Shown here one piece after another: positions 23,751 through 58,357 of a stretch of 64,000 bases of DNA. The stretch's first letter is position 1, and each line of letters begins with the position of its first letter. This stretch comes from Eledone cirrhosa. Its lineage: Eukaryota. The translations under genes and the position numbers were made by a program. The stretch is taken from the NCBI GenBank assembly GCA_964016885.1, contig OZ024741.1, positions 406,162,001-406,226,000 on the forward strand, written 5' to 3'. Below the pieces are notes generated by a model, which saw only the letters and a program-made list of their open reading frames with translations, ran no database searches and was not told the origin of the DNA.

Positions 23751-23898
23751 ACAACGGTTAAATTCGATCTCATTGAATTTACTGTTTCAAAAACAGTAAC
23801 AGATTCTTTGTAATAATTGTTTCTACGTTTGGCACAAGGCAGAATTACTCAGTACATTACTCGTACTTTATTTCTTCTTCTTCTTCTTCTTCTTCTTC

Positions 23899-23965
<67 letters not shown>

Positions 23966-23968
<3 letters not shown>

Positions 23969-24496
23969 CGTGAGGATTGCCCCGCCCTCCTCCTTTAGCC
24001 GGGAAGGGCAGGCAGTTTTTATCTGTCTGGTGGCCATGGCGAAAGAGATAGTATGGTGGACACGTTTGAAAGGGCTGAAGACGAGCACTTACCTCTTCGG
24101 TGATGCTCTGATTGACTTTTTCAAATTTCATTTGTAAAGGAAAATCAGAGTAGAGAGGGAAGTGCTCTCTTCCCAGCATTTTGTTGAAAGATGGGTGAGA
24201 GAAGCAAGAATGGCCCGAGTGAATGGACCTACTCTGAGTATATATCTGTAAATTAAAGGTGGAAAACTGGGAGAGGGCACTTGCCTTGGTGGTCAGGGTC
24301 ATTGTGGCTTTTACTGGGCTTTCTCCACAAATGTCCCTCCGAAGTCTCCCCCCTATTGGGGAATTTTTCATTGTTTTTTTGTTACATCCTCTGTTTTTGT
24401 TTTTTACACGCACAAATGCCCATTTGTACCGTCCTGCATTGTCCTGCACTGTCCTTAATGTCTACTTTATGTAAACCCTTGTGGTTAATAAAGAAA

Positions 24497-24498
<2 letters not shown>
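23966..24498 (+). mobile_element. 5'-truncated Tx1-clade LINE (ORF2 C-terminus and 3'UTR)
   Basis: Matches 48479-49025; flanked by (TTA)n on both sides; AATAAA at 24487. Confidence 0.92.
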
Positions 24499-24552
<54 letters not shown>

Positions 24553-24567
24553 GTTATTATTATTATT

Positions 24568-24980
24568 CCTTGAATCAGTCATTGATGTTAGTTAACTGGA
24601 AAGTCCGTTGGAATGAATATCAAGCCACTACCTGCAGCCTCAGATATTCAGGACGTATCGGAGGGTTCTTGCTGTTCCCAGCAAGCATGCCTTTTGAAGC
24701 GTTCCAAAAAGCGTGAAGGGGCCGATTTTCTTTAACCATCCCTGGAAACTTTTGGAGATAGTCCCCAATGCGCCTAAGACAATCGGGATCACTTTGACTT
24801 CATCGCAGTTCCAAATCCTTTTTACCTCGCACTTTAAGTCCTGGTATCGGTCAATTTTCTCCCTCTCCTTCTCTTGCACTCTCGTGTCGAATGGGCAGGC
24901 CACATCCACAATGAGACAAGATCTTTTTTCTTTGTCCACAACCACCAGGTCAGGTCTATTGTGTTCCAGTTTCTTGTCCG
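24568..24980 (-). mobile_element. 5'-truncated R4/Dong-like element, family B (RLE domain)
   Basis: HNRPDLVVVD...IVDVACP...KIDRYQDL...PIVLGALG restriction-like endonuclease; between (TTA)n blocks. Confidence 0.88.
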
Positions 24981-25034
<54 letters not shown>

Positions 25035-28000
25035 GGCGACCTACGTAGTAAATCGTATCATCGTGAGCTCCGCAAAGGTTTGTTATTTCCGTTTGTTAAA
25101 AATTGCCATTTATGGAAAATGTTTATTGTTAAATATATATAAGCGCACATGCATTGTTTTCCGAAAAGGACACCCAAAGAGATTGGGGCCTTGTGCCCAA
25201 AATTTAAACTTTTATGATTATCAAAAAATTTCTTTGAAAAAAAAATGGCTAATTCACCTCTGCACCAAAAAGCTGAAAGCCTTCCTCACAAATTAACACC
25301 TCACACCTACACCACCATTGTAAATGATACTACGTTTGCCAACACAAACAATTTAAGCACTAGCAATATTTTAAATTTGTCTCAGGCAGACATTCATTTC
25401 CCGCCATTACCAATGACTGCAGGTGTTAAAGCCGCCACCACCACCACCACCGCGACAACCACCACCTCCACCACCACCGCGACAACAGAAACAAAAGAAG
25501 AAAAAAATTAACTCGTGATGTCGAAATGAAATCAAGCCAAATGGACTCTTCCGCACCAAAGACGACTGACGTCACCACCACCACAACTGAAACTAAAATT
25601 AATAATAACAAAAATAACGATAACAACAACAACAACAATGACATTAAAAAAACCACCCTGAGTTTTGCCAGAGTAGCAAAATAGTGCGAAGCATTTACGG
25701 AGCCCCCCCCCCCCCCACACACACACCTAATAAAATGGAGCATCGGCGCCTATGCACCGTGTCGTATCGAACAATAAATGTAAAATCGCGCCGAGTGGAA
25801 CGGGCATCCGAGTCCCAAATCCAAAAAGCTTTGGGACATGTGTGGGCAAGAAAAACCCACATCAGACGTGGGCAGAAGTATGGAACCGTGGACGTGTTCT
25901 TTGAAACACCAGAGGAGGCTAGAGAACACTCCATGGCCCCATTAAGAAGTGACGACTTCACACTCGTCCCAAGCTATTGTGGCCAGAGACTCGTAAAGAT
26001 CAGGGTGACCCACGTTCCACCGGCCATCGAAATTCCCTGGCTAATAGCGGCCGTCCTCGCCGGCATCGAAGCCAACACAAAGATAATAGCAATAGCAAAA
26101 GAAAAGCAGGAGAACTGGTCCGGATCTGGGATGGAGCTCCTGATCCAAGCGGACCAAAAAAGAATTGAGGAGATCCCAGAGGTAATAGACCTCACTGACG
26201 GCAGCCACCTCACCGTATTTGTCGAGGGCAGAAGGCCTAGGTGTGTCGTTTGTGGTGAAGGAACCCACCTAAGGGCTTTCTGCCCTCAGACTAAAAGGTT
26301 GAGGCCACCTCTCCTATCCACCCCAGTGACTCAACCATCAACATCACCAGTAGCAGAGATGGCAGCAACAACTGTAGCAGCAACAACAGAAGCAACTATA
26401 ACAGCAACAACCCCAGCAACAGTAGCAAAACCAACACCACCACCACCAGCAAAACCAACACCACCACCACCCAACGCTTCAGAACTAGCACCAGCGCCTA
26501 CACCATCCACCACGCCACAACCAAAACTAACGCCTGTGGAGGATTTTCCACTCCTCGGCCTATCACAACTGGAGACAGATTGTGACGACGAGGAGTGGGA
26601 AACGGTATCAGGAAAAAAAAAAAGAAACCAAAAAAGAAAAAATTCTCTTCCTTCCCCCTCCAAAAACAAAATACAGAGGGAAACAAATAAATTAAGAAAC
26701 AAAAGAGTTAGGACAGATATGCCACCATCCACACCAGCATCACCAATCCCATCACCCCAAACACCAACACCATCACCATCATTAACCCCAACACCACCAT
26801 CACCTACACCACAAAAGTCACCAAAATGCGAAACAGAAACAAACCCACAACGAAAGCAAACAAAACAAAACAACCAAAACGATACACACTACACAGCATT
26901 AAATTTGAACAACAAGCAATTATTCTACTACATCCAACACGACACCAGCATCACAGAAAAAGACTACACAACAACCCCAAAATTCACACCACCTCCACAC
27001 ATACAAATCACTCGCATCACACAGAAAACGTACATGACACTGAAACAAAAATTCCCCAAAGACATCGGAGACTTCCGACAAGCACTCTCCAGGAGGATTT
27101 ATAAGGACATCCTTCCTGGGGAGGCCACAAGCAGTGTAAAGGATGGAAAAACGGTCCTTCCTCTACTTTTCTTGGAACGTCTCGCTCTTTAGTGTTAGTG
27201 CGCGACTGGAACGGGATCTTAGATGCACGCTGGGATTGTGTGGGATTAGTGGATAGGGAAGAAGGGTGCAAGAGTCTCACCAACCTGCTCAGGTGTTTTG
27301 AACTGTCTGACAGGTACCGATTGGATTTCCCGAATGTACCAATGTGGACTTGGACAAATCGTATAGGGTCATCCAGATCATATATAGATAGAGTATTTTG
27401 TAGGGAAATAGATAGGTCTAGCATAGGCTGTCCACAATAGTCAGCTACAAGATAGTCAGCTACACGGACCACAAATTCGTAATCTATGTGCTTGACTTAG
27501 ATAGGCTTCATAGACGAGGACTAGGCTACTGGAAGCTAAACGCGTCCTTACCAGCGCGCAAGGCCTACAGAGACCGGATTAGCGAACTAGTTAAGCGGGC
27601 GTTGACGGGGGCCATCGTCAACAACAAGTGGTGGTTTGCTCTGAAAAGAGCAATTAGAATAGAGTCCATTGGGTTTAGTAAGGCTTTAGCAATAGAGAAA
27701 AATAGAGCAGAGGGAGAATTAGTTACAAAATTAGACGAGGCGCTTTGAAAAGGCATCGAACCGACGTACTTGCGGCGAAATTGGCCCTTGACCAATTCTT
27801 CAATGCAAAGCACGAAGGCTGCGTTGTCAGAGCTAGGGTGCGTGCTCTCAGACACGAGGGGACGAAAGCCGTTCAATGGGCCCGAGTGGCGGAGGCGCGT
27901 CGTGGCAACAAAGCCACGATCCGGTCTTTGGTGGACCACGACGGGCGCATGCTACTCGATCCCGGGCAAATGTGTGAAGCTTTTCAGCGACACTTCGCTC

Positions 28001-30452
28001 AACTGTTCGGGGGCAGTGGCGGGCCGGGTCGAGGGATGGACTTTAGTGTCTACCTCGACGGACTGCCGCGGCTCTCGGCCACTGAGGCGGAGTGTTGCGA
28101 AAAGCCGATAACAGCCACTGAAGTACGGGAGGCAATGACTGGCTGCACAAGGGGTAAATCGCCTGGTTTGGATGGTCTGCCCTATGAACTTTACGTACAA
28201 ATGCCAGAGTTGTTCGGAGGCCTCTTGGCGGACGTCTACTGCAACTGGCAACAGAACGGGAGAATTCCCAGCTCTGTGAGCTGAGGAGCGGTGGCGTTGC
28301 TGAGAAAGGATCCGAACAAGGGGGATAACATAGATAATGTTAGGCCCATAACTCTGCTAAACACAGAGTTCAAGATTTTGGCCAAGGTGCTAGCAAAGAG
28401 GTTGGCGCTTGTAGTTGGTGGTCTGGTGGGAGAGGCGCAGACATGCGCCATTCCCGACAGATCCATCCACGACAACCTCCACCTCATGCGATACATCGTA
28501 GAGAGGGTAGCTAGGGAACATGGCATGGGTGGGTCCTTGATCAATTTAGCTCAGTCGAAAGCTTTCGATAGGGTCGACCATCGTTACCTAGCGGCAGTCC
28601 TGAGGGCGGCTGGCTTTGGGCCCGTCTTCAGAGGCTGGATCGCTGCCATGCACAGCGACATCTGCTCTGTGCTGAGAGTGAACGGTCACCTTTCGGAACC
28701 GTTCAACATCATGCGCTCGGTCCGCCAAATATGTCCCCTCTCGTTCCTATTGTACGTATTGACTCTCGAGCCATTACTGCACAAACTGGAGACGTTGAGG
28801 GGGGTCCCGCGCGAACTAGGATGCAGAAGATCCGTGTCAGCATATGCGGACAATGTCACCGTAGTGGTGTCGAACGCCAAACACATCGAGGCGATCGGCA
28901 CTACACTAAGAGAATACGAAGCGGTGACAGGAGCAATGATCAACCAGAAAAAGTCAGTGGGCCTGCAACTCAGCACCTGGAGAGGCAGGTCCATGCCGTC
29001 CAACATCGTCGTTGGGCGCTGGACGGACGGACCGGTTAAATTGCTAGGGGTCTGCTTCGGTCCAGACCTCCAGACGGACAAAAACTGGGACGAATTGACG
29101 AGCAGGGTGGCTTCTCTCACCCAGAAATGGGCCGAGAGGAAGCTATCCCTGAAAGGTCGAGCGGAGGTGGCTAACGCGTACATCGCATCCGTCATCTACT
29201 ACTGCCTGACCGTCGTACCATGTCCTAAGCCCCGCCTGACTGCCCTGGAGCGTTTGCTCTTTCGCTTTTTGTGGAAGGGACGCACTCCGATGGTTAGGCG
29301 GTCCATCTGCTGTCAACACCCGCTACGTGGAGGGCTGGGCATGCCGTGGCTGATGATGCGCAGATACGCGCTCAGGCTACGACATCTCCACCTCTTCCTC
29401 GACGGTGATCAGGTGTGGTCGCCGTTTGCTAGACACGTCTTTCCCCAGCTCGTCTCCTTGACGGAGCTGCAGTCCTGGGTCAAGCGAAGACCGAGAGGGA
29501 GCGCTTGGAGACTGGAATGTCTTCAGGCGCTCACAGCCCTCGACCAATCGGGCAATGTGATCGGTGGAAACTCCACCTTGGCGTTCTATAGGGGATTAGT
29601 GGAGGGGAAGAGCGACGACGTACTTGGAGAAACTCTAGGCGTCGACGAAAATCAACTAGCCAATCTCTTCGGAAGGACTTTCGGGCCGGGGCCTATGGAC
29701 AACTTCCAGAAATCCCTGGCCTGGCAGTGCTACCGAGGAGCTTTGCCAGTTCGGGATAAACTCTACAGGCATGGAGGTGCCGTCAGCCGGGCATGTCCGA
29801 GATGCGCGCAGGGCGACGAAACCGTCCTGCACGCACTCGTCCAGTGTCCGAGCATTGCTGACTTGTGGGTTTATGTCGAACACCTGCTGTCACGTGTAGG
29901 ACGGATCCAGCTATCAGCTGAGTCCATCGTGATGATTGCCTCGCCCTCTTCCTTTAGCCGGGAAGGGCAGGCAGTTTTTATCTGTCTGGTGGCCATGGCG
30001 AAAGAGATAGTATGGTGGACACGTTTGAAAGGGCTGAAGACGAGCACTTACCTCTTCGGTGATGCCCTGATTAACTTTTTCAAATTTCATTTGAAAAGGA
30101 AAATCAGGGTAGAGAGGGAAGTGCTCTCTTCCCAGCATTTTGTTAAAAGATGGGTGAGAGAAGCAAGTATGGCCCGAATGAATGGGCCTTCTCTGAGTAT
30201 GTGTCTGTAAATTAAAGGTGGATAACTGGGAGAGGGCACTTGCCCTGGTGGTCAGGGTCACTGTGGTCTTTTAATGGGCTTTCTCCACAAATGTCCCTCG
30301 GAAGTCTCCCCCCTATTGGGGAATTTTTCTTTGTTATTTTATTACATCCTCTGTTTTTTTACACGCCGAAATGCCCATTTGTACCGTCCTGTATTGTCCT
30401 GTACTGTCCTTAATGTCTACTTTATGTAAACCCTTGTGGTTAATAAAGAAAA

Positions 30453-30453
<1 letters not shown>
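25035..30453 (+). mobile_element. Tx1-clade LINE, ORF1 type A, defective
   Basis: ORF1 zinc knuckle CVVCGEGTHLRAFC; APE and RT fragments with stops and a YADN motif; ~430-bp deletion at ~27166 removes the ORF1/ORF2 junction. Confidence 0.92.
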
Positions 30454-30487
<34 letters not shown>

Positions 30488-30488
<1 letters not shown>

Positions 30489-33400
30489 AGTTGCATTTAT
30501 CTTGCTTTATGTTCATACGAGTTATCACCAAGTCACAACCAGTGACCTCAAGAGACATCAAGGTCCGCCATGTTCAAGAAAGAACATACATACTCACACA
30601 TGCATCTTTAGTGTTTAGACTTGTGATGTACTTATATTGACAGAATCTTCCTTAGTATATGGGCAGTTCCCATTAGTACTATCTTTTGTATTTCTCCTAT
30701 ACGCGGATTTCCTGGGATTTGCGATAAGTAATCATTAGACCCCTTAGGTATCATTCCCAGAGCGCCTACAACCACTGGTATTGTTTTAGTTCTCAATTTC
30801 CACATTTTTCCAATTTCTATCTCGAGGTCCTTATACTTGCTCAATTTTTCAAATGTGTTTATAGATACATTCTTGTCTATTGGAACAGACATATCAATTA
30901 GCAGGCATACCCTCTTTTTAAAGTCCTTCAATATTATATCAGGTCTATTTGCATCTATTTTTCGGTCTGTTTGGATGCTAAAGTTCCACAAGATTGAGAT
31001 GTGATCTTTTTCAAGTATGGGAGGTGGTTGATGCTCCCACCAATTCTTTTGATAGGGCAGGTCAAAATGCTTACACATTATCCAATGTATGTATTGTGCA
31101 GCTCTGTCATGCCTGTTTAGGTATTCGGTTGGAGCTATAGGACTGCACATTGAATTTATATGGTCAATGATCTCTGGTTGTTTTTTGCATACACGGCATA
31201 ATGGGCTGCATCCATTTTTTATTATGTTGGCTTGGTAATTTTTTGTTGGCAGACACTGATCTTGTGCTGATATAATCAGTCCTTCAGTCTCCGATTTCAG
31301 TCCAGAGGATGCCAACCACTGATGGGTTAAAGTTTTGTCAACATCAGGATTGTTAGCTCGCTCTGGGTATTTTCCATACAGAGGCTTTTCTTGCCATTTC
31401 TTAGCCAGTTTCTGTAGCAGTTCTTTCTTTGCAGTTACTTCTACCTGCTTTGCTTTTTCTGTGTTTTCCATTTCAGCAGTAAATGGGACTTCTGAAATTT
31501 GTAGTCCATTACTGTTTCTTTGTGCATCTTTTGTAATGGAATATGATCTTTTGATGCTTTCGTGTTTCAAAACGAGTTTGATCATCCAATCATGTGATTC
31601 CCTTAGATATGTAGATAATCCAATTGTTGCAGTTTTCAACGCAATGTCTAACTGGATTAACCCACGTCCTCCTTCTTTCCTAGGGAGATATATTCTATCT
31701 ATATCTGCCTTAGGGTGATGCATTCTGTGCATGGTTAAGAATTTTCTCATTTTTGTATCGAGCCTACGGATCTCTGTGCTTAACCAGTTGATGACATTGT
31801 AACTGTAGGTTACTACTGGTATGGCAAGCGTGTTTATGGCATCGATCCAATTCCTTGCATTCAATTCCGTTCTTAAGATTGCTCTTACTCTGCGGTAACA
31901 TTCCTTCCTTATCCTTTCCCTCATTGTTGAGTGCTTGATTCCGTCTCCTTCACAAACACCTAGATATTTGTAAGTTTTTTTCTTGATCATGTCCTCTTAT
32001 CACGTTCCTCCGATCAAGATTAATGTCTGAACTCTTCAGCAGCTTTCCTCTGGTGAACGTTGCTTTGGCGCATTTATCTAGTCCAAACTCCATTTTAATG
32101 TCATCACTGAACTGCTCCACAGTGGATAATAGCCCTTGCAATTGTTCATCATTTTTTGCAAATAGTTTCAGGTCATCCATGTAGAACAGGTGATTAATGG
32201 TTTTGTCATAGACTTTATATCCATGTTTTGTTTCATTGAGCATTTTACTTAATGGTATAAGTGCGATGCAGAATAAAAGCGGTGATAAAGAGTCACCCTG
32301 AAAAATTCCACAATTAATATTAATTTCTCCAGCTTCCAGTGATTTTGTTTCACTATTCAAAAGGAGTGTCGTTTTCCATGTCTTCATACTGAATGACAAA
32401 AACCTCCTGACAACGGGGGATATTTTGAAAATCTCTAAACATTTTGCAATCCAACTGTGTGGCAAACTATCGAATGCTTTTTTATAATCTATCCAAGCAA
32501 TCGATAGATTTTTGTGTCTATTATGACAATCTTCCAGTATCATTTTGTTAACCAGAAGCTGATCCTTACAGCCATATGAGCCTCGTTTACACCCTTTCTG
32601 CTCAATGGGAAATAGGTCATTTGTTATCAGGTAGTCATATGTGTATTCAGTTAGGACTGATGTTAAAATTTTATACATTGTGGTCAAGCAAGTTATCGGT
32701 CTGTAATTTTTGGGATTGTTTGTCTCATCATTCTTCGGAAGCAGGAATGTAATGCCGTTAACTAGCCATGATGGTATCTTTTCTGGCTCCTTAACTATTT
32801 CATTGTAAAGTTGGGCTAACAGCTCATGAGACTCTGTGAAGGCATTTATCCAAAAGTTTTGTATTTTGTCTTTTCCTGGAGATTTCCATTTGCTGGTTTT
32901 TCTTAGAGCCAAGCGCAACTGTTCAACTGTTATATTTTCCCATATTTGTTCCTCAAGGGGAGCTGTATTTTTCATTTGTCTGTCTATCCATGGGGCATGT
33001 ATGTTATGAACTTTTTCTTCGGCCCAGATCTTTTCCCAGAATTCTTGCACTTCCTCCTTGGGTGGTATTGATTTAGCAGCTATTGTTGACTTACCAATTT
33101 TCCTGTAGAAGTTTCTTTGGTTGTTTTTGAACATATTATTGTCCTTATAGAATCTAGATCGTTTTCAAAGCGCTTATACGAGCAGCTTTGGCCGACACTT
33201 TTTGCTTGATTATTTCTATCAGCATGTCTATGTCACATGTTGATTTTATACTGTACTTTTTTTTCAATTTTCTATAAGTTTAGTTTGTTTAACATGTTCA
33301 CCTACTTTATAGTTTGTTAAAATTTCTGTCAGATCGGAGAAGGTTTATTTGGCGATTGATGTTCTCTTGCCAAGTAGATTTCTTGTGGGAATTCCTTTGT

Positions 33401-35424: not shown

Positions 35425-35447
35425 TTATTATTATTATTATTATTATT

Positions 35448-41314: not shown

Positions 41315-41315
<1 letters not shown>
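35448..41315 (+). mobile_element. Tx1-clade LINE, ORF1 type A, full length, ORF2 disrupted
   Basis: Same 5' end (ggcgacctacgtag) as 25035 and 51492; ORF1 35792-37627; ORF2 from 37662 with frameshifts and stops; YADD present. Confidence 0.93.

Positions 41316-41384
<69 letters not shown>

Positions 41385-41385
<1 letters not shown>

Positions 41386-42960: not shown

Positions 42961-42961
<1 letters not shown>
41385..42961 (-). mobile_element. 5'-truncated R4/Dong-like element, family B
   Basis: INHLLFMNDLKLFGK, YKYLG, GGRGL, CRIC, RHD and RPD motifs; between (TTA)n blocks. Confidence 0.9.
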
Positions 42962-43000
<39 letters not shown>

Positions 43001-43216
43001 GAATGCCATGGTTGACGGAGGCTCGGCTCTGTAAGGTATAGTAATTTTTAACCGTTAAAACAATTGTAAATTGTTTAAAACTTGAACCAAATTGTTGATA
43101 AAGACACCCTCCTCCTCGTGAGAGGGGTCTTTCTGTCCATTATTTGGCCCTTCGGGGTTAAATAACCAGTTATTGGGGTTTTGTACCCAAAATTTCATTT
43201 TAAACAAAAAAACAAC

Positions 43217-45310: not shown

Positions 45311-45344
45311 GTGGTCTTTCCCATCTTTTCCACTCTATTTAAAC

Positions 45345-48300
45345 ATGACCTCACTCAGAATAGGCAGCATAAATGCGCGTGGCTTGGGGTCGTCATGGAA
45401 GCAGGGTCACCTGCTCAACGACCTCAGGTCACTAAACATAGATGTAGTGGCCATCAGCGAGACCAGAATCTCCGAAGCACGGGCCTTCGCACCGATCTTC
45501 GGCGGCTACGATGTGTACGCATCTCCCAGCCGTCCTGGATCGGGTGGAGGAGTTGCTGTGCTTTTTCGGAGAGGTTTGGATCTCGCCATACGGGCCATCT
45601 TCCTGGACCCAGAGGGTAAGCTGGTGGTGCTGGACGTGACCAGCGGAGACGGGCAAGCTTTCAGGCTAGTGGCCGTCTATGCCCCGACAGGAGCAGGGCG
45701 GCCTGATTTCTTCCGGCGTCTGGAGACCTTTCTTGGAACGTCCCGCTCTTTAGTGTTAGTGGGCGACTGGAACGGGATCTTAGATGCACGCTGGGACTGT
45801 GTGGGATTAGCGGATAGGGGTGGAGGGTGCAAGAGCCTCACCAACCTGCTCAGGCGTTTTGAACTGTCTGACAGGTACCGATTGGATTTCCCGAATGTGC
45901 CAATGTGGACTTGGACAAACCGCATAGGGTCATCCAGATCATATCTAGATAGAGTATTTTGTAGGGAAATAGATAGGTCTAGCATAGGCTGTCCACAATT
46001 CAAGATAGTCAGCTACACGGACCACAAATTCGTGATCTGTGTGCTTGACTTAGATAGGCTTCATAGACGAGGACCCGGCTACTGGAAGCTAAACGCGTCC
46101 TTACCAGCGCGCAAGGCCTACAGAGACCGGATTAGCGAACTAGTTAAGCGGGCGTTGACGGGGGCCATCGTCAACAACAAGTGGTGGTTTGCTCTGAAAA
46201 GAGCGATTAGAATAGAATCGATTAGGTTTAGTAAGGCTTTAGCAATAGAGAAAAATAGAGCAGAGGGAGAACTAGTTAGAAAATTAGACGAGGCGCTTAG
46301 CAAAGGCATTGCGACCGACGTGCTTGCGGCGAAATTGGCCCTTGACCAATTCTTCAATGCAAAGCACGAAGGCTGCGTTGTCAGAGCTAGGGTGCGTGCT
46401 CTCAGACACGAGGGGACGAAAGCCGTTCAATGGGCCCGAGTGGCGGAGGCGCGTCGTGGCAACAAAGCCACGATCCGGTCTTTGGTGGACCACGACGGGC
46501 GCATGCTACTCGATCCCGGGCAAATGTGTGAAGCTTTTCAGCGACACTTCGCTCAGCTGTTCGGGGGAAGCGGGGGGCCGGGTAGAGGGATGGACTTTAG
46601 TGTCTACCTCGACGGACTGCCGCGGCTCTCGGCCACTGAGGCGAAGTGTTGCGAAAAGCCGATAACAGCCGCTGAAGTACGGGAGGCAATGACTGGCTGC
46701 ACAAGGGGTAAATCGCCTGGTTTGGATGGTCTGCCCTATGAACTTTACGTACAGAGGCCAGACTTGTTCGGAGGCCTCTTGGCGGACGTCTACTGCAACT
46801 GGCAACAGAACGGGAGAATTCCCAGTTCTGTGAGCCGAGGAGCGGTGGCACTGCTGAGAAAGGATCCGAACAAGGGGGATAACATAGACAATTTCCGGCC
46901 CATAACTCTGCTAAACACAGAGTTTAAGATTTTGGCCAAGGTGCTAGCAAAGAGGTTGGCGCTTGTCGTTGGTGGTCTGGTGGGAGAGGCGCAGACATGC
47001 GCCATTCCCGACAGATCCATCCACGACAACCTCCACCTCATGCGATACATCGTAGAGAGGGTAGCTAGGGAACCTGGCACGGGTGGGTCCTTGATCAATT
47101 TAGATCAGTCGAAAGCTTTCGATAGGGTCGACCATCGTTACCTAGCGGCAGTCCTGAGGGCGGCTGGCTTTGGGCCCGTCTTCAGAGGCTGGATCGCTGC
47201 CATGCACAGCGACATCTGCTCTGTGGTGAGAGTGAACGGTCACCTGTCGGAACCGTTCAACATCATGCGCTCGGTCCGCCAAGGATGTCCCCTCTCGTCC
47301 CTCTTGTACGTATTGACTCTCGAGCCATTACTGCACAAACTGGAGACGTTGAGGGGAGTCCCGCGCGAACTAGGATGCGAAAGATCCGTGTCAGCATATG
47401 CGGACGATGTCACCGTAGTGGTGTCGAACGCCAAACACATCGAGGCGATCGGCACTACACTAAGAGAATACGAAGCGGTGACAGGAGCAATGATCAACCA
47501 GGAAAAGTCAGTGGGCCTGCAGCTCGGCACCTGGAGAGGCAGGTCCATGCCGTCCAACAGCGTCGTCGGGCGCTGGACGGACGGACCGGTTAAATTGCTA
47601 GGGGTCTGGTTCGGTCCGGACCTCCAGACGGACAAAAACTGGGACGAGGTGACGAGCAGGGTGGCTTCTCTCACCCAGAAATGGGCGGAGAGGAAGCTAT
47701 CCTTGAAAGGTCGAGCGGAGGTGGCTAACGCGTACATCGCGTCTGTCATCTGCTACCGCCTAACCGTCGTACCTTGTCCTAAGCCTCGCCTGACTGCGCT
47801 GGAGCGTTTGCTCTTTCGCTTTTTGTGGAAGGGACGTGCTCCGATGGTCAGGCGGTCCATCTGTTGTCAACACCCGCTACGTGGAGGGCTGGGCATGCCG
47901 TGGCTGATGATGCGCAGGCACGCGCTCAGGCTACGACATCTCCACCTCTTCCTCGACGGTGATCAGGTGTGGTCGCCGTTTGCTAGACGCGTTTTTCCCC
48001 AGCTCGTTTCCTTGACGGAGCTGCAGTCCTGGGTCAAGCGAAGACCGAGAGGGAGCGCCTGGAGACTGGAATGTCTTCAGGCGCTCACAGCCCTCGACCA
48101 ATCGGGCAATGTGATCGGTGGAAACTCCACCTCGGCGTTCTATAGAGGATTAGTGGAGGGGAAGAGCGACGACGTACTTGGGGAAACTCTAGGCGTCGAC
48201 GAAAATCAACTAGCCAATCTCTTCGGAAGAACTTTCGGGCCAGGGCCTATGGACAACTTCCAGAAATCTCTGGCCTGGCAGTGCTACCGAGGAGCCTTGC

Positions 48301-48698
48301 CAGTTCGGGATAAACTCTACAGGCATGGAGGTGCCGTCAGCCGGGCATGTCCGAGATGCGCGCAGGGCGACGAAACCGTCCTGCACGCACTCGTCCAGTG
48401 TCCGAAAATTGCTGACTTGTGGGTTTATGTCGAACACCTGCTGTCGCGTTTAGGACGGATCCAGCTATCATCTGAGTCTATCGTGAGGATTGCCCCGCCC
48501 TCCTCCTTTAGCCGGGAAGGGGAGGCAGTTTTTATCTGTCTGGTGGCCATGGCGAAAGAGATAGTATGGTGGACACGTTTGAAAGGGCTGAAGACGAGCA
48601 CTTACCTCTTCGGTGATGCTCTGATTGACTTTTTCAAATTTCATTTGAAAAGGAAAATCAGAGTAGAGAAGGAAGTGCTCTTCCCAGCATTTTGTTGA
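45345..48698 (+). CDS. Tx1 ORF2p: APE endonuclease, reverse transcriptase and C-terminal zinc finger
   Basis: SINARG, SET, GDWN, YLDR, TDH; DQSKAFD, QGCPLS, YADD; CPRC..ETVLHALVQC. A 2-bp loss in ctctct at ~48680 alters only the last ~20 aa. Confidence 0.93.
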   Translation: MTSLRIGSINARGLGSSWKQGHLLNDLRSLNIDVVAISETRISEARAFAPIFGGYDVYASPSRPGSGGGVAVLFRRGLDLAIRAIFLDPEGKLVVLDVTSGDGQAFRLVAVYAPTGAGRPDFFRRLETFLGTSRSLVLVGDWNGILDARWDCVGLADRGGGCKSLTNLLRRFELSDRYRLDFPNVPMWTWTNRIGSSRSYLDRVFCREIDRSSIGCPQFKIVSYTDHKFVICVLDLDRLHRRGPGYWKLNASLPARKAYRDRISELVKRALTGAIVNNKWWFALKRAIRIESIRFSKALAIEKNRAEGELVRKLDEALSKGIATDVLAAKLALDQFFNAKHEGCVVRARVRALRHEGTKAVQWARVAEARRGNKATIRSLVDHDGRMLLDPGQMCEAFQRHFAQLFGGSGGPGRGMDFSVYLDGLPRLSATEAKCCEKPITAAEVREAMTGCTRGKSPGLDGLPYELYVQRPDLFGGLLADVYCNWQQNGRIPSSVSRGAVALLRKDPNKGDNIDNFRPITLLNTEFKILAKVLAKRLALVVGGLVGEAQTCAIPDRSIHDNLHLMRYIVERVAREPGTGGSLINLDQSKAFDRVDHRYLAAVLRAAGFGPVFRGWIAAMHSDICSVVRVNGHLSEPFNIMRSVRQGCPLSSLLYVLTLEPLLHKLETLRGVPRELGCERSVSAYADDVTVVVSNAKHIEAIGTTLREYEAVTGAMINQEKSVGLQLGTWRGRSMPSNSVVGRWTDGPVKLLGVWFGPDLQTDKNWDEVTSRVASLTQKWAERKLSLKGRAEVANAYIASVICYRLTVVPCPKPRLTALERLLFRFLWKGRAPMVRRSICCQHPLRGGLGMPWLMMRRHALRLRHLHLFLDGDQVWSPFARRVFPQLVSLTELQSWVKRRPRGSAWRLECLQALTALDQSGNVIGGNSTSAFYRGLVEGKSDDVLGETLGVDENQLANLFGRTFGPGPMDNFQKSLAWQCYRGALPVRDKLYRHGGAVSRACPRCAQGDETVLHALVQCPKIADLWVYVEHLLSRLGRIQLSSESIVRIAPPSSFSREGEAVFICLVAMAKEIVWWTRLKGLKTSTYLFGDALIDFFKFHLKRKIRVEKEVLFPAFC

Positions 48699-49023
48699 AA
48701 GATGGGTGAGAGAAGCAAGAATGGCCCGAGTGAATGGGCCGACTCTGAGTATATATCTGTAAACTAAAGGTGGAAAACTGGGAGAGGGCACTTGCCTTGG
48801 TGGTCAGGGTCATTGTGGCTTTTTACTGGGCTTTCTCCACAAATGTCCCTCCGAAGTCTCCCCCCTATTGGGGAATTTTTCATTGTTATTTTCATTGTTA
48901 TTTTTGTTACATCCTCTGTTTTTGTTTTTTTTACACGCAGAAATGCCCATTTGTACCGTCCTGCATTGTCCTGCACTGTCCTTAATGTCTACTTTATGTA
49001 AACCCTTGTGGTTAATAAAGAAA

Positions 49024-49070
<47 letters not shown>

Positions 49071-49077
49071 GTTATTA

Positions 49078-50481
49078 CTCCTTGAGTCTCAGTCATTGAT
49101 GTTAGTTAACTGGAAAGTTTGTTGGAATGAATATCAAGCCACTACCTGCAGCCTCAGATATTCAGGACGTATCGGAGGGTTCTTGCTGTTCTCAGCAAGC
49201 ATGCCTTTTGAAGCGTTCCAAAAAGCGTGAAGGGGCCGATTTTCTTTAACCATCCCTGGAAACTTTTGGAGATAGTCCCCAGTGCGCCTATGACAATCGG
49301 GATCACTTTGACTTCATGGCAGTTCCAAATCCTTTTTACCTCCCACTTTAAGTCCTGGTATCGGTTAATTTTCTCCCTCTCCTTCTCTTGCACTCTCGTG
49401 TCGAATGGGCAGGCCACATCCACAATCAGACACGATCTTTTTTCTTTGTCCACAACCACCAGGTCAGGTCTATTGTGTTCCAGTTTCTTGTCCCTCTGTA
49501 TCCTAAAATCCCACAGCACCTTCACCTGATCGTTCTCCATCACCGCCTCAGGCTTATGCTCATACCATTTCTCAGAATGTGGTAAATTGTTTACTTTGCA
49601 CAGGTGCCAGTGGATCACCCTGCCCATCACATCGTGTCTCCAGCCCTTATAGTGGGTCTGGGCTAGGTGTTTACACTCGGATACAATGTGAGCCACAGTC
49701 TCCTCTCTCTCTCCACAGATCCTGCACAGTGGGCTAGCCTCCTCCTTGTAAATATGGTGTTTCAACCACTTCGTTTTGAGGGCCTGCTCCTGCGCAGCCA
49801 TTAACATTCCTTCTGTAGCCTTTTTAAGGTCTCCTCTTTTCAACCAGTTCCATGTCAGTGGATCTCTAAATTCAGTTTTCTCAAAGAAGGTACTATGAAG
49901 GGATTTTTCCTGAAGGCTGCTCTTTCTCCTTGATGTTATTTCCTCCTTGGACATCCCCTGGCCTATTGTCCCATCCTTCAGTACAGTTCTGAGCATTGGC
50001 TCCTTACTATCAGTCACGTATTTGTGTAGGTTGTTTTTCTCCATCTGAACACAGTCCTCTATGCTGATAAGACCTCTTCCACCCTCAGATCTCCTTAGGT
50101 AGAGTCTATCGACATCACTCCTCTTGTGGAACATGTTGTAGATAGTCAATAGCTTCCTAGTCTTCCTATCCATTTCTTTTTGTTCAGCAACATTCCATCT
50201 CAGAATTCCCGCACTGTACCTAATAATAGACACAGCTCGGGAATTTACTGCGCTTATGGCATTTCTGCTGTTCAGATGTGACTTCAATACGCTCCTTACT
50301 CTCCGAATGTATTCAGTTCTTAACAATTCCTTCATTTTTTTGTTCTTTACGCCATCAGCCTCCAGAACGCCCAAATACTTGTATCCTTCCTCAGAGTCAA
50401 TTTCCTTTATCATCTCACCTGTTGGTATCTGGATTCCGTTACTTCTGCTCAACCTACCCCTCCTCATCACAATGACTCCAC
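49078..50481 (-). mobile_element. 5'-truncated R4/Dong-like element, family B
   Basis: Open frame from ~50480 to the stop at 49154 with CRICGEREETVAHIVSEC, RHD and RPD motifs. Confidence 0.9.
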
Positions 50482-50689
50482 GTATTTGTGTTATTATTTC
50501 TTTGAAAAATTCAAAAGGAAAATTAATTTGAATCAAGCAAATTTTGTTTTATGAAAATACATTTAATATGTCCAGGGTAGTTTTCTGCTTTGATGGTGTA
50601 TAATAAAGTATAATTTATTTGATAAAATCAGTACTTTGAATGTCTGTGGAAAGAATTGCGGGACAGATTTTACAGGTAAAAACTATTTG

Positions 50690-50729
<40 letters not shown>

Positions 50730-51452
50730 TGCATTTATCTTGCTTTATGTTTATACGAGTTATCACCAAGTCACAACCAGTGACCTCAAGAGACAACAAG
50801 GTCCGCCATGTTCAAGAAAGAACATACATATTCACACATGCATCCTTAGTGTTTAGACTTGTGATGTAATTATATTGACAGGATTTTCCTTAGTATATGG
50901 GCAGTTCCCATTAGTACTATCTTTTGTATTTCTCCTATACGCGGGTTTCCTGGGATTTGCGATAAGTAGTCGTTAGACCCCTTAGGTATCATTCCCAGAG
51001 CGCCTACAACCACTGGTATTGTTTTACTTCTCAATTTCCACATTTTTCCAATTTCTATCTCCAGGTCCTTATACTTGCTCAATTTTTCAAATGTTTTTAT
51101 AGATACATTCTTGTCTATTGGAACAGACATATCAATTAGCAGGCATACCCTCCTTTGAAAGTCCTTCAATATTATATCAGGTCTATTTGCATCTATTTTT
51201 CGGTCTGTTTGGATGCTAAAGTTCCACAAGATTGAGATGTGATCTTTTTCAAGTATGGGAGGTGGTTGATGCTCCCACCAATTCTTTTGATGGGGCAGGT
51301 CAAAATGCTTACACATTATCCAATGTATGTATTGTGCAGCTCTGTCATGCCTGTCTAGGTATTCGGTTGGAGCTATAGGACTGCACATTGAAATTATATG
51401 GTCAATGGTCTCTGGTTGTTTTTTGCATACACGGCATAATGGGCTGCACCCA

Positions 51453-51458
<6 letters not shown>
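50730..51458 (-). mobile_element. 5'-truncated R4/Dong-like element, family A
   Basis: Near-identical to 30491-31222; flanked by (TTA)n. Confidence 0.9.
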
Positions 51459-51491
<33 letters not shown>

Positions 51492-54400
51492 GGCGACCTA
51501 CGTAGGAAATCGTATTATCGTGAGCTCCGCAAAGGTTTGTTATATCCGTTTGTTTAAAAATTGCCATTTATGGAAAATTTTATTGTAAACTGTTTATAAG
51601 CACACATACATTGTTTTCCGAAAAGGACACCCAAAAAGATTGGGGCCTTGTGCCCAAAATTTTAACTTTTATTATTATCCAAAAATTTCTTTGAAAAAAA
51701 AATGGCTAATTCCCCTCTGCACGAAGCAGCTGAAAGCCTTCCTCACAAAATAACACCTCACACCGACACCACCATTGTAAATGTTACTACGTTTGCCAAC
51801 ACAAAAAAAAATATAAGCAGTAGCAATATTTTAAATTTGTCTCAGGCAGACATTCATTTCCCGCCATTACCAATGACTGCAGGTGTTAAACCCTCCACCA
51901 CCACCACCACCGCGACAACCACCACCACCACCACCACCGCGACAACAGAAACAAAAGAAGAAAAAAATAAATTAACTCGTGACGTCGAAATGAAATCAAG
52001 CAAAATGGACTCTTCCCCACCAAAGACGACTGACGTCACCACCACCACAACTGAAAATAAAATTAATATTAACGATAGCAACAACAACAACAATGACATT
52101 ATAAAACCGACCCTCAGTTTCGCCATCGTAGCAAAACAATTCGAAGCGTTCACGGTAACTCAAGAAGATTTAGAAAATGCCAAACAAATGGTAAAGAAAG
52201 ATGGGTACAGGGTCAGCCTCACCCACCCACCCCCCACCCCCACCCCACCTAATAAAATGGAGCATCGGCGCCTGTGCACCGTGTCGTATAGAACAATAAA
52301 TGTAAAATCGCGCCGAGTGGAACGGGCATCCGAGTCCCAAATCCAAAAAGCTTTGGGTCATGTGTGGGCAAGAAAAACCCACATCAGACGTGGGCAAAAG
52401 TATGGAACCGTGGATGTGTTCTTTGAAACACCAGAGGAGGCTAGAGAACACTCCATGGCCCCATTAAAAAGTGACGACCTCACACTCGTCCCAAGCTATT
52501 GTGGTCAGAGACTCGTAAAGATCAGGGTGACCCACGTTCCACCGGCCATCGAAATTCCCTGGCTAATAGCGGCTGTCCTCGCCGGCATCGAAGCCAACAC
52601 GAAAATAATAGCAGTAGCAAAAGAAAAGCAGGAAAACTGGTCCGGATCTGGGATGGAGCTCCTGATCCAAGCGGACCAAAAAAGCATTGAGGAGATCCCA
52701 GAGGTAATAGACCTCACTGACGGCAGCCACCTCACGGTAATTGTCGAGGGCAGAAGACCTAGGTGTGTCGTTTGTGGTGAAGGAACCCACCTAAGGGCTT
52801 TCTGCCCTCAGGCTAAAAGTTTGAGGCCACCTCTCCTACCCACCCCAGTGACACAACCATCAACACCACCAGTAGCAGAGATGGCAGCAACAACTGTAGC
52901 AGCAACAACAGAAGCAACTATAACAGCAACAACCCCAGCAACAGTAGCAAAACCAACACCACTACCACCACCAGCAAAACCGACACCACCACCACCCAAC
53001 GCTTCAGAACTAGCACCAGCGCCTACACCATCCACCACACCACAACCAAAACTAACGGCTGTGGAGGATTTTCCACTCCCCGGCCTATCACAACTGGAGA
53101 CAGATTGTGACGACGAGGAGTGGGAAACGATATCCGGAAAAAAAAAAAAGAAACCAAAAAACAAAAAATTCTCTTCCTTCCCCCTCCAAAAACAAAATAC
53201 AGAGGGAAACAAATAAACTAAGAAACAAAAAAGTTAGGACAGATATGCCACCATCCCCACCAGCATCACCAACCCCATCAACCCAAACACCAACACCATC
53301 ACCATCATTATCCCCAGCACCACAATCACCTACACCACAAAAGTCACCAAAATGCGAAACAGAAACAAACCCACAACAAACGCAAACAAAACAAAACAAC
53401 CAAAACGATACACACTACACAGCATTAAATTTGAACAACAAGCAATTATTACACTACATCCAACACAACACCAGCATCACAGAAAAAGACTACACAACAA
53501 CCCCAAAATTCACACCACCTCCACACATACAAATCACTCGCATCACACAGAAAACGTACATGACACTAAAACAAAAATTCCCCAAAGACATCGGAGACTT
53601 CCGACAAGCACTCTCCAGGAGGATTTATAAGGACATCCTTCCTGAGGAGGCCACAAGCAGTGAAAAGGATGGAAAAGCCGTCCTTCCCCTACGAGAAGTA
53701 AGGTAAGTGGTCTTTCCCATCTTTTCCACTCCTTTTCAACATGACCTCACTCAGAATAGGCAGCATAAATGCGCGTGGCTTGGGGTCGTCATGGAAGCAG
53801 GGCCACCTGCTCAACGACCTCAGGTCACTAAACATAGATGTAGTGGCCATCAGCGAGACCAGAATCTCCGAAGCACAGGCTTTCGCACCGATCTTCGGCG
53901 GCTACGATGTGTACGCATCTCCCAGCCGTCCGGGATCGGGGGGAGGAGTTGCTGTGCTTTTTCGGAGAGGCTTGGATCTTGCCATACGGGCCATCTTCCT
54001 GGACCCAGAAGGTAAGTTGGTGGTGCTGGACGTGACCAGCGGAGACGGGAAAGCTTTCAGGTTAGTGGCCGTCTATGCCCCGACAGGAGCAGGGCGGCCT
54101 GATTTCTTCCGGCGTCTGGAGAGCTTTCTTGGAACGTCCCGCTCTTTAGTGTTAGTGGGCGACTGGAACGGGATCTTAGATGCACGCTGGGATTGTGTGG
54201 GATTAGTGGATAGGGAAGGAGGGTGCAAGAGTCTCACCAACCTGCTCAGACGTTTTGAACTGTCTGACAGGTACCGAATGGATTTCCCGAATGTACCAAT
54301 GTGGACTTGGACAAATCGCATAGGGTCATCCAGATCATATCTAGATAGAGTATTTTGTAGGGAAATAGATAGGTCTAGCATAGGCTGTCCACAATTCAAG

Positions 54401-57400
54401 ATAGTCAGCTACACGGACCACAAATTCGTGATCTGTGTGCTTGACTTAGATAGGCTTCATAGACGAGGATCCGGCTACTGGAAGTTAAACGCGTCCTTAC
54501 CAGCGCGCAAGGCCTACAGAGACCGGATTAGCGAACTAGTTAAGCGGGCGTTGATGAGGGCCATCGTCAACAACAAGTGGTGGTTTGCTCTGAAAAGAGC
54601 GATTAGAATAGAATCGATTAGGTTTAGTAACGCTTTAGCAATAGAGAAAAATAGAGCAGAGGGAGAACTAGTTAGAAAATTAGACGAGGCGCTTAGCAAA
54701 GGCATTGCGACCGACGTTCTTGCGGCGAAATTGGCCCTTGACCAATTCTTCAATGCAAAGCACGAAGGCTGCGTTGTCAGAGAAAGGGTGCGTGCTCTCA
54801 GTCACGAGGGGACGAAAGCCGTTCAATGGGCCCGAGTGGCGGAGGCGCGTCGTGGCAACAAAGCCACGATCCGGTCTTTGGTGGACCACGACGGGCACAT
54901 GCTACTCGATCCCGGGCAAATGTGTGAAGCTTTTCAGCGACACTTCGCTCAACTGTTCGGGGGCAGTGGCGGGCCGGATCGAGGGATGGACTTTAGTGTC
55001 TACCTCAACGGACTGCCGCGGCTTTCGGCCACTGAGGCGGAGTGTTGCGAAAAGCCGATAACAACCGCTGAAGTACGGGATGCAATGACTAGTTGCACAA
55101 GGGGTAAATCGCCTGGTTTGGATGGTCTGCCCTATGAACTTTACGTACAAATGCCAAACTTGTTCGGAGGCCTCTTGGCGGACGTCTACTGCAACTGGCA
55201 ACAGAACGGGAGAATTCCCAGCTCTGTGAGCCGAGGAGCGGTGGCGCTGCTGAGAAAGGATCCGAACAAGGGGGATAACATAGATAATTTTAGGCCCATA
55301 ACTCTGCTAAACACAGAGTTCAAGATTTTGGCCAAGGTGCTAGCAAAGAGGTTGGCGCTTGTCGTTGATGGTCTGGTGGGAGAGGCACAGACATGCGCCA
55401 TTCCCGACAGATCCATCCACGACAACCTCCACCTCATGCGATACATCGTAGAGAGGGTAGCTAGGGAACCTAGCACGGGTGGGTCTTTGATCAATTTAGA
55501 TCAGTCGAAAGCCTTCGATAGGGTCGACAATCGTTACCTAACGGCAGTCCTGAGGGCGGCTGGCTTTGGGCCCGTCTTCAGAGGCTGGATCGCTGCCATG
55601 CACAGCGACATCTGCTCTGTAGTGAGAGTGAACGGTCACCTTTCGGAACCGTTCAACATCATGCGCTCGGTCCGCCAAGGATGTCCCCTCTCGTCCCTAT
55701 TGTACGTATTGACTCTCGAGCCATTACTGCACAAACTGGAGACGTTGAGGGGGGTCCCGCGCGAACTAGGATGCGGAAGATCCGTGTCAGCATATGCCGA
55801 CGATGTCACCGTAGTGGTGTCGAACGCCAAACACATCGAGGCGATCGGCACTACACTAAGAGAATACGAAGCGGTGAGAGGAGCAATGATGAACCAGGAA
55901 AAGTCAGTGGGCCTGCAGCTCGGCACCTGGAGAGGCAGGTCCATGCCGTCCAACAGCGTCGTCGGGCGCTGGACGGACGGACCGGTTAAATTGCTAGGGG
56001 TCTGCTTCGGTCCAGACCTCCAGACGGACAAAAACTGGGACGAGGTGACGAGCAGGGTGGCTTCTCTCACCCAGAAATGGGCCGAGAGGAAGCTATCCCT
56101 GAAAGGTCGAGCGGAGGTGGCTAACGCGTACATCGCATCCGTCATCTACTACCGCCTGACCGTCGTACCTTGTCCTAAGCCCCGCCTGACTGCGCTGGAG
56201 CGTTTGCACTTTCGCTTCTTGTGGAAGGGACGCGCTCCGATGGTCAGGCGGTCCATCTGCTGTCAACACCCGCTACGTGGAGGGCTGGGCATGCCGTGGC
56301 TGATGATGCACAGACACGCGCTCAGGCTACGACATCTCCACCTCTTCCTCGACGGTGATCAGGTGTGGTCTCCGTTTGCAAGACAGGTTTTTCCCCAGCT
56401 CGTCTCCTTGACGGAGCTGCAGTCCTGGGTCAAGCGAAGACCGAGAGGGAGCGCTTGGAGACTGGAATGTCTTCAGGCGCTCACAGCCCTCGACCAATCG
56501 GGCAATGTGATCGGTGGAAACTCCACCTTGGCGTTCTATAGGGGATTAGTGGAGGGGAAGAGCGACGACGTACTTGGAGAAACTCTAGGCGTCGACGAAA
56601 ATCAACTAGCCAATCTCTTCGGAAGGACTTTCGGGCCGGGGCCTATGGACAACTTCCAGAAATCCCTGGCCTGGTAGTGCTACCGAGGAGCTTTGCCAGT
56701 TCGGGATAAACTCTACAGGCATGGAGGTGCCGTCAGCCGGGCATGTCCGAGATGCGCGCAGGGCGACGAAACCGTCCTGCACGCACTCGTCCAGTGTCCG
56801 AGCATTGCTGACTTGTGGGTTTATGTCGAACACCTGCTGTCACGTGTAGGACTGATCCAGCTATCAGCTGAGTCCATCGTGAGGATTGCCCCGCCCTCTT
56901 CCTTTAGCCTGGAAGGGCAGGCAGTTTTTATCTGTCTGGTGGCCATGGCGAAAGGGATAGTATGGTGGACACGTTTGAAAGGGCTGAAGACGAGCACTTA
57001 CCTCTTCGGTGATGCCCTGATTAACTTTTTCAAATTTCATTTGAAAAGGAAAATCAGGGTAGAGAGGGAAGTGCTCTCTTCCCAGCATTTTGTTGAAAGA
57101 TGGATGAGAGAAGCAAGTATGGCCCGAATGAATGGGCCTTCTCTGAGTATGTGTCTGTAAATTAAAGGTGGAAAACTGGGAGAGGGCACTTGCCCTGGTG
57201 GTCAGGGCCACTGTGGTCTTTTAATGGGCTTTCTCCACAAATGTCCCTTGGAAGTCTCCCCCCTATTGGGGAATTTTTCTTTGTTATTTTATTTCAACCT
57301 CTGTTTTTTTACACGCAGAAATGCCCATTTGTACCGTCCTGTATTGTCCTGTACTGTCCTTAATGTCTACTTTATGTGAACCCTTGTGGTTAATAAAGAA

Positions 57401-57402
57401 AA

Positions 57403-57403
<1 letters not shown>
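51492..57403 (+). mobile_element. Tx1-clade LINE, ORF1 type A, full length with few lesions
   Basis: ORF1 51702-53706 with one frameshift in an A-run (~53140); ORF2 53741-57160 with one premature TAG at 56675. Confidence 0.94.
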
Positions 57404-57451
<48 letters not shown>

Positions 57452-57452
<1 letters not shown>

Positions 57453-57638
57453 GCCGTCGTCGTCCACTTATTACTGAGAGGGTCGAGTGGGCAGAGTCCT
57501 CTAACACTCCTTTCAGTGGGTCCTGTCAGACGCAACCATCTCCATCTGATCCAGCTGGATCCCCAAGTGAGACCAGCCAAGCTCATGGATGTTATCCAAC
57601 CATCTTGCTCAGGGTCTACCCCTGGGTCTCCTGCTGGT
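57452..57638 (-). mobile_element. 3' fragment of an RTE-like LINE abutting (TAA)n
   Basis: Minus frame SRRPRGRP*ARWLDNIHELGWSHLGI...ASDR resembles the RTE C-terminal RxRGRPxxRWxD motif. Confidence 0.7.
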
Positions 57639-58357
57639 TAGTTTTTACCTGTAAAATCTGTCCCGCAATTCTTCCACAGACATTCAAAGTACTGATTTTA
57701 TCAAATAAATTATACTTTATTATACACCATCAAAGCAGAAAACTTCCCTGGACATATTAAATGTATTTTCATAAAACAAAATTTGCTTGATTCAAATTAA
57801 TTTTCCTTTTGAATATTTCAAAGAAATATGTTATTAAAAAAAATATAAATAACAGGTATTAAAACAAAAGCAAAAAAACTTCAAAAAGAATGAATATCGA
57901 TCAAAGCAGTGAATATTTTAATAATTGAATGTTCTAAGTTCGATTAATGATTGAAAAAATTTAGATAGTTGTATTGATAGAAAGTCGTAGATAGCTGTAT
58001 GACGTCATCTCTCCTGATTACAACGTTTCTGTTATCCTAGAACAATTTATTGTAATTAAGTAGCATGTGAAGACATATTTTTTGTTGGTTCATAGAAGTG
58101 ATAAACACTGTATAATTAAACGATTGTTTCCATAGCATATATTCCTGAGCTGAGTCTCACCATGGGATAATATTCTCTTAGAACAATACATTACTTCTGG
58201 AGTCAATACAGTGTATTGACTAAATAATTGATTACAGTATTGCTTCTATCTGGCTTGAGAACAATACTAGAACTAATGAATATTATTAAAGAAAATAATA
58301 ACTTCACTGAAGATCATAATAATCACATCGACTGTTATATCAACCCTCGATATATTT

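Follow-up and report, generated by a model that had tools for sequence, protein, structure and literature searches.

Trains of L1/Tx1-group and Dong/R4-like retrotransposons in ATT microsatellites of Eledone cirrhosa: probable serial insertion in near-random order

The window considered here, a stretch of 64,000 nucleotides from the 3.0-Gb genome of Eledone cirrhosa (G000:C2:406162001-406226000), carries a train of 11 retrotransposons that lack long terminal repeats (non-LTR elements), separated by (TTA)n blocks. Five belong to the L1/Tx1 group and lie on the + strand, five are Dong/R4-like and lie on the - strand, and one is an RTE fragment, also on the - strand. How did elements with two types of endonuclease come to share one microsatellite, and does their order follow a rule? 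An earlier interpretation of these letters alone (the sequence-only reading) had proposed that both types target the same repeat in opposite polarity, that each insertion regenerates the target, and that near-strict alternation hints that the elements facilitate one another or that direct repeats are selected against.

Our analysis indicates that the genome very probably holds many such trains, in which one L1/Tx1-group family and two Dong/R4-like families, DongA and DongB, have inserted serially into one ATT/TAA microsatellite in an order that is near random. Elements of both classes have the repeat on both sides and keep fixed, opposite orientations; the copies are of independent origin and are frequently stacked, and there is no general alternation. 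The train is a real feature, and an ordinary one for this genome.

Targeting of ATT repeats throughout the genome

Counted with exact motifs, the genome contains 6,927 Tx1-like 3' ends, 2,308 5' ends of the Tx1a subfamily, 10,057 3' ends of DongB, and 2,987 3' ends of DongA with TTA. A slightly different motif finds 6,315 Tx1-like 3' ends with three ATT units. The surroundings of the first 100 Tx1-like 3' ends on contig C1 served as a sample. In this set, for which a 3' ATT run was a selection criterion, (TTA)n is also found on the 5' side of all 68 full-length copies and of 16 of the 31 truncated ones, the 1 remaining copy being located at a stretch edge. Unselected 3' ends give a similar picture, as ATT follows 29 of 30 and at least three perfect ATT units follow 23 of 30. 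Among 5' ends with a perfect 14-nt repeat, the phase from ATT through the element to ATT is exact in 40 of 44 cases for Tx1a and in 37 of 38 for the second subfamily, Tx1b.

The corresponding DongB sample consists of the first 67 of 100 listed ends (the other 33, for which coverage was limited to those near Tx1-like copies, were dropped). Within it, 65 of the 67 3' ends and 56 of the 67 5' ends lie in (TTA)n. All 30 of the DongA 3' ends inspected are in the (TAA)n target. These genome-wide flanks agree with the proposal that a family with an APE-type (apurinic/apyrimidinic endonuclease-like) enzyme and families with a restriction-like endonuclease (RLE) use one (TTA)n target. The proposed opposite polarity of Tx1 and Dong is likewise borne out, and strand-specific targeting accounts for it.

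Immediately behind the repeat block, another Tx1-like element, a Dong element, or a short interspersed element (SINE) is present in 72 of 100 Tx1-like copies. Successive Tx1-like ends lie no more than 20 kb apart in 31 of 99 cases, compared with 3.4% expected, and 30 of these 31 are on the same strand.

Order of neighboring elements

From left to right, the order in the window is Tx1-like, DongB, Tx1a, DongA, Tx1a, DongB, Tx1b, DongB, a 190-bp insert, DongA, Tx1a, and RTE-like, as read together with the strands from a self-BLAST of the window. Element class switches at 8 of 9 steps, for which the probability under shuffling is 10/252 = 0.04, a post hoc figure that concerns one train out of very many. 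With trains so numerous, an order like that of the window is to be expected somewhere in the tail of their distribution.

Junctions between neighbors were counted in the whole genome with exact motifs for full-length 5' ends only, a procedure that includes tandem arrays and misses truncated 5' ends and diverged copies:

Tx1-like 3' junctions: Tx1a 5' end 252, Tx1b 5' end 521, DongB 959, DongA 423
Dong 5' junctions: Tx1a 130, Tx1b 78, DongB 356, DongA 260
Pooled junctions (T, Tx1-like; D, Dong): T-T 773, T-D 1,382, D-T 208, D-D 616

Same-class junctions account for 1,389 of the 2,979 (47%), and the pooled odds ratio (OR) of 1.66 (95% interval 1.38-1.98) favors neighbors of the same class. For individual subfamily pairs, the OR for same-class neighbors is 2.48 (Tx1b/DongB), 1.19 (Tx1a/DongA), and 4.11 (Tx1b/DongA). 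Alternation as a rule was considered when the first table, that of Tx1a and DongB, gave an OR of 0.72, and it was rejected when the three replicate tables reversed this result. In the C1 samples, the next element after a Tx1-like copy is Dong in 37 cases and Tx1-like in 27, and the previous element is Dong in 37 and Tx1-like in 28. DongB copies have a Tx1-like neighbor at the tail in 26 cases and a Dong neighbor in 22, with 21 and 17, respectively, at the head. Other trains include runs of six Dong elements, or of three to four Tx1 copies.

Near-strict alternation therefore fails as a description of these trains, with same-class neighbors about as common as mixed ones. The sequence-only reading had suggested a comparison with random order; the genome-wide junction counts gave the very outcome, same-class pairs about as common as mixed pairs, that it had named as counting against the idea. 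Because alternation is not upheld, mutual facilitation and selection against direct repeats lose their support as well. Alternation is contradicted as a strong rule, and a weak bias of Tx1a and DongB toward mixed neighbors is compatible with the data.

Structure of the train

The train and its borders comprise the following features (ORF, open reading frame; RT, reverse transcriptase; UTR, untranslated region):

23811..23873, - strand: 3' fragment of a SINE in the left flank, 5'-truncated, abutting (TTC)n; matches other SINE copies in the window
23872..23967, + strand: compound repeat (TTC)9(TTA)23 that bounds the target on the left
23968..24498, + strand: Tx1-like 3' fragment of 531 bp, 93-95% identical to the long copies; its 5' junction has short microhomology to the TTA block
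24568..24980, - strand: DongB 3' fragment of 413 bp, 96-97.5% identical to other DongB copies
25035..30453, + strand: Tx1a with both ends present; an internal deletion at about 27166 spans the ORF1/ORF2 boundary and removes the ORF2 start
30488..35424, - strand: full-length DongA with a broken ORF; RT (PF00078), C-terminal CCHC, and restriction-like endonuclease motif
35448..41315, + strand: full-length Tx1a with a broken ORF2; ORF1 is open over 668 aa from stop to stop
41385..42961, - strand: DongB 3' fragment of 1,577 bp (from self-BLAST)
43001..49025, + strand: full-length Tx1b with a different 5' region and ORF1 (43166-45310); ORF2 (45345-48698) with APE, RT, and zf-RVT (PF03372, PF00078, PF13966)
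49078..50483 (right end approximate), - strand: DongB 3' fragment, about 1,400 bp long, carrying an RLE motif (E 0.002, a weak match to the R2 RLE)
50495..50685, - strand: 190-bp inverted copy of 57639-57828, with a 13-bp direct repeat at both sides (50484-50496, 50685-50697)
50730..51456, - strand: DongA 3' fragment of 727 bp, 97.2% identical to 30492-31218; its 5' junction has microhomology to the repeat
51492..57403, + strand: full-length Tx1a; ORF1 frameshifted, ORF2 with one late stop
57404..57451, + strand: last block, (ATT)16, adjoining the RTE fragment on its 3' side
57452..57690 (right end approximate), - strand: RTE-like 3' fragment, degraded, 70-86% identical to other copies
Starts of the nine inner (TTA)n blocks: 24499, 24981, 30454, 35425, 41316, 42962, 49026, 50692, 51457

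All 11 (TTA)n blocks described by the sequence-only reading are present at the positions it gave. Its order and strands (all Tx1 +, all Dong -) are reproduced by the self-BLAST, and in this window the body of no element is broken by another, as it had observed. The extent it gave for the train, 23871..57638, needs correction at the right, where the RTE fragment reaches about 57690 rather than 57638.

What had been called a 200-bp insert does exist, and it is actually an inverted copy of the right flank. The stretch 50495-50685 matches 57639-57828 at 98.4% in inverted orientation, and the genome holds no other full-length copies. Its ends show 2-4 bases of microhomology, and it likely originated by a local template switch. 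The suggestion that the copied segment starts exactly at the 5' junction of the RTE element was dropped, as the RTE extends to about 57690. The two inverted copies (50495-57828) bracket 7.3 kb. A 968-base contig from sequencing runs X1 and X3 begins with 28 unmatched letters and then matches from 57639; it could represent either an assembly-graph chimera or an inverted allele.

The fragment at 57452..57690, which a C-terminal motif suggests to be RTE, is the most diverged element of the train. Its homology to other copies stops at 57688-57692, high-copy coverage stops near 57696, and in a contig of another organism (X4) the match to the right flank starts only at 57691. The high divergence and the X4 match are consistent with the RTE tail being the seed of the target, short of showing it, and the fragment was probably the founder of the train.

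Elsewhere in the window, tandem arrays occupy 2619-4958 (466 bp x5, 99%), 22392-23750 (47 bp x29), and 59323-60763 (42 bp x34.5), and the 47-bp and 42-bp arrays flank the train closely, one on each side. An intronless ORF resembling linker histone H1 lies at 8252-9004 on the + strand (PF00538, E 3e-24).

Identity of the elements

The N terminus of Tx1-like ORF2 matches APE endonucleases (PF03372, E 3e-14; best PDB match L1 endonuclease, E 5e-6). Its RT is closest in the PDB, where few clades have solved structures, to L1 ORF2p (E about 1e-37, versus 5e-19 for R2). One CCHC pattern can be discerned by eye in both types of Tx1-like ORF1, for which Pfam reports neither zf-CCHC nor RRM. ORF1 of the Tx1 clade is reported to carry an RRM and/or a CCHC knuckle, unlike the vertebrate L1 type (PMC5203782). 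As judged from these protein matches, the family is a member of the L1 group, and it likely falls within the Tx1 clade. The 10 homologs looked up among 33 for the Tx1-like element bear no informative name, and the nearest distant homolog has no loci in metagenomes.

The third long Tx1 copy in the window, Tx1b, differs from the others in its 5' region and in ORF1, whose proteins are 53% identical across their best 227 aa. The ORF2 regions of Tx1a and Tx1b are 95-96% identical in DNA, and the differing 5' UTR and ORF1 correspond to window positions 43001-45310 versus 51492-53706. This pattern of a common ORF2 with different 5' UTR and ORF1 resembles a module swap. At least two further Tx1-like families, more diverged (72-81%), are likewise found in (TTA)n. 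An ORF2 of at least 1,100 aa is still open in 26 of 54 full-length Tx1-like copies, which makes the family a young and testable one, and Tx1b copies from different sites are up to 99.75% identical.

In the Dong-like proteins, the RT is followed by a C-terminal CCHC and a PD-(D/E)xK restriction-like nuclease. Their PDB matches are R2 proteins only, and these are also the best matches for the DongA RT (E 7e-21). DongA and DongB are 37% identical in the C-terminal part. A Pfam search of the Dong-like proteins for an N-terminal Myb/SANT domain gave no match; Dong is described as having a diverged domain of this kind, without N-terminal zinc fingers, that was visible only by HHpred (PMC7998251). 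The elements fit R4/Dong by domains and target.

On the TTA strand, the sequence at full-length Dong 5' ends is CTTCTTCCC genome-wide, at times with (TTC)n next and then (TTA)n, so Dong 5' junctions may be where part of the compound (TTC)n(TTA)n repeats originate. A SINE-like stretch at about 34510-34590 was considered as a new insertion and rejected, since another full-length DongA copy matches across it at 97% (L178-L179).

A SINE partner and the probable renewal of targets

An abundant SINE of about 200 bp with an ATT tail occurs at window positions 6801-7012, in eight further places in the window, and at many loci. Before the ATT, its 3' end shares with the Tx1-like elements the motif CCTTGTG..GAAA.C, the common stretch being short. 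The SINE is the right-hand neighbor of 8 in 100 Tx1-like copies, and within trains it has the Tx1-like orientation. It is also inserted within Tx1 bodies (L140, L168, L189-L190). Its 3' junctions start with ATTAT in 63 of 79 cases, and at sites outside pure repeats a duplication of 13-21 bp (median 16) is detected in 25 of 60, compared with 2 of 48 controls. By its common 3' end and its insertion signature, the SINE qualifies as the partner of the Tx1-like long interspersed element (LINE), with putative mobilization in trans.

The earlier claim that each insertion renews its target finds support in the target-site duplications (TSDs) of the SINE and in two off-target Tx1 copies (L304 and L308) that have duplications of about 14-17 bp beginning with ATT. 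Because TSD length is unreadable in pure repeats, the case for renewal by Tx1 depends on these two copies and the SINE. Impure repeat blocks were also searched for duplications made by Tx1, with no clear result.

Tx1-like copies have AATAAA just before the end and no poly(A), and DongB tails show recurring variants, such as TTG units, that are common to many copies. These features suggest that the element RNA extends into the repeat and base-pairs there with the primer. Annealing of RNA with a primer of like kind has been discussed for SART1 and R1 (PMC7265360).

Weighing alternative explanations

A train of this kind could instead have been produced by local duplication through unequal crossing-over, or by misassembly. 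Duplication is certainly seen elsewhere: a unit of Tx1b and DongA(1-813) is present twice in a row (L207-L210), two occurrences of a Tx1 fragment share one breakpoint (L192-L193), and a head-to-tail Tx1b array on C1 (441092482-441134902) has a spacing of about 6.07 kb with one imperfect spacer repeated. The former two reflect local duplication or co-mobilization within trains, and the array is a satellite-like amplification of a LINE. No contig from the sequencing runs spans the train, the X1/X3 contig matching only from 57639, and an empty site was not seen among those contigs. However, the window copies are 91-97.7% alike, come from different subfamilies, and have differing 5' breakpoints, with microhomology to the repeat at the 5' junction in two of three copies checked. 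When five Tx1-like, three DongB, and two DongA copies from the window were compared with 85, 76, and 24 C1 copies, all 10 had a better match on C1 than in the window. The window copies are therefore independent insertions, as the sequence-only reading had suggested, in part from their differing truncation points, and duplication or misassembly is a most improbable origin for the train. It is unlikely, albeit less so, that the Tx1-like family lacks repeat specificity, with (ATT)n being its tail only, and, like its SINE, favors AT-rich sites resembling ATTAT. Indeed, the SINE enters single ATTAT sites, (TTA)3 lies upstream of only 15 of 51 near-full SINEs, and a few Tx1 copies are within ACT- or GTT-rich variants. 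A tail cannot place a repeat on the 5' side, however, and for this reason the 5' repeat of every full-length copy in the C1 sample counts against such an account; that sample was selected on the 3' ATT run, and unselected 3' ends agree. Both views can be partly true if the nick occurs at ATTAT and RNA-DNA pairing sharpens the specificity of the LINE.

Another proposal is that Tx1-like and Dong elements favor each other, or that same-orientation neighbors of one family are purged, leaving alternating trains. The 8 of 9 switches in the window (p 0.04) fit this proposal, as do the Tx1a/DongB table and the lean of the C1 samples, and tandem amplification of Tx1b (C1 441.09-441.13 Mb) raises same-class counts and could mask a weak effect. 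Three of the four subfamily pairs and the pooled ratio nevertheless point the other way. Moreover, Tx1-like elements make up 27 of 64 right-hand LINE neighbors of Tx1, Dong elements make up 22 of 48 left-hand ones of DongB, and long same-class runs are present, all of which leaves facilitation or purging quite improbable. Several observations do weigh against serial insertion in near-random order, the reading we prefer. The Tx1a/DongB pair has a weak, real excess of mixed neighbors (OR 0.72, 0.56-0.92), the C1 samples show a non-significant lean in the same direction (OR 0.59 and 0.64; p 0.22 and 0.26), and the whole-genome junction counts depend on exact motifs and full-length 5' ends. In addition, the train is without a spanning long read, the 5' block is missing in 15 of 31 truncated Tx1-like copies, and TSDs are hidden within pure repeats for Tx1 and unmeasured for Dong.

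A proposed mechanism for train growth

Under serial insertion, target-primed reverse transcription would likely copy part of the repeat to both sides of the new element and so create two new targets. The Tx1-type APE may nick the (AAT)n strand at AAT/AAT and duplicate about 16 bp (five ATT units), as the off-target copies and the SINE suggest, and the Dong RLE would nick the (TTA)n strand. RNA running into the repeat could then pair with the nicked primer. At this site, the tail of the RTE element may have provided the first target. The order within a train would approach a random draw, with the same-class excess resulting partly from tandem amplification.

Comparison with known systems

These findings add (ATT)n as a probable new target for the Tx1 group and provide a further case of convergence between APE and RLE elements. 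The target duplications of the SINE reveal a cut geometry that is concealed within the repeat, and the thousands of trains constitute a natural data set on the order of insertion. Because alternation does not hold generally and published precedents exist for every ingredient, the system should mainly interest those who specialize in retrotransposons and does not amount to a novel kind; its lasting points are the probable new Tx1 target and the SINE that goes with it. With rather more doubt than conviction, we also propose that an active Tx1-group lineage whose ATT nuclease specificity is new to the clade, together with its SINE, seeds and lengthens ATT microsatellites that serve as self-renewing pads for about 20,000 APE and RLE LINE insertions. 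The SINE, the LINE, and Dong would then form one genome-shaping feedback system.

Neither an (ATT)n-specific Tx1-group family nor such mixed trains were found in the accessible passages of the open literature, and such a Tx1 family could already be listed among the targets in Repbase or in the supplements of PMC4494074. Recently active Dong-R4 and L1-Tx1 elements are reported from Octopus vulgaris, with nothing on targets in the portions available (PMC13282606, PMC8967140).

Dong itself, of the R4 clade, is reported to target (TAA)n in the majority of insects, molluscs, and cnidarians, and it is like the elements described here in its RT, C-terminal RLE, and target (PMC7998251). Nothing essential differs, except that two families here share the site with an APE family. 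For the Tx1 group, the nearest precedents are Kibi in (TC)n, Koshi in (TTC)n, and the crocodilian families in (TTCC)n/(TTTC)n, which also have two ORFs, an APE-RT arrangement, and insertion into simple repeats (PMC4494074). The target here is (ATT)n rather than a pyrimidine repeat. Sharing of one tandem repeat by two LINE families in opposite directions is known from TRAS and SART in the (TTAGG)n of Bombyx (PMC7265360). Those families are both APE-type and telomeric, whereas one APE and two RLE families meet here in a dispersed microsatellite. Convergence of APE and RLE elements on one target is exemplified in U2 snRNA genes by Keno, a Tx1 element with APE, and by the RLE element Utopia (PMC4640811), where the target is an RNA gene and the 3' flanks are identical, in contrast to the repeat target and opposite polarity seen here. 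Finally, the SINEU of crocodilians was inferred to be moved by Tx1-Mar from their common target preference (PMC4494074), and it thus parallels the SINE of about 200 bp described here, whose 3' end is Tx1-like over a short stretch and whose ATTAT target is less strict.

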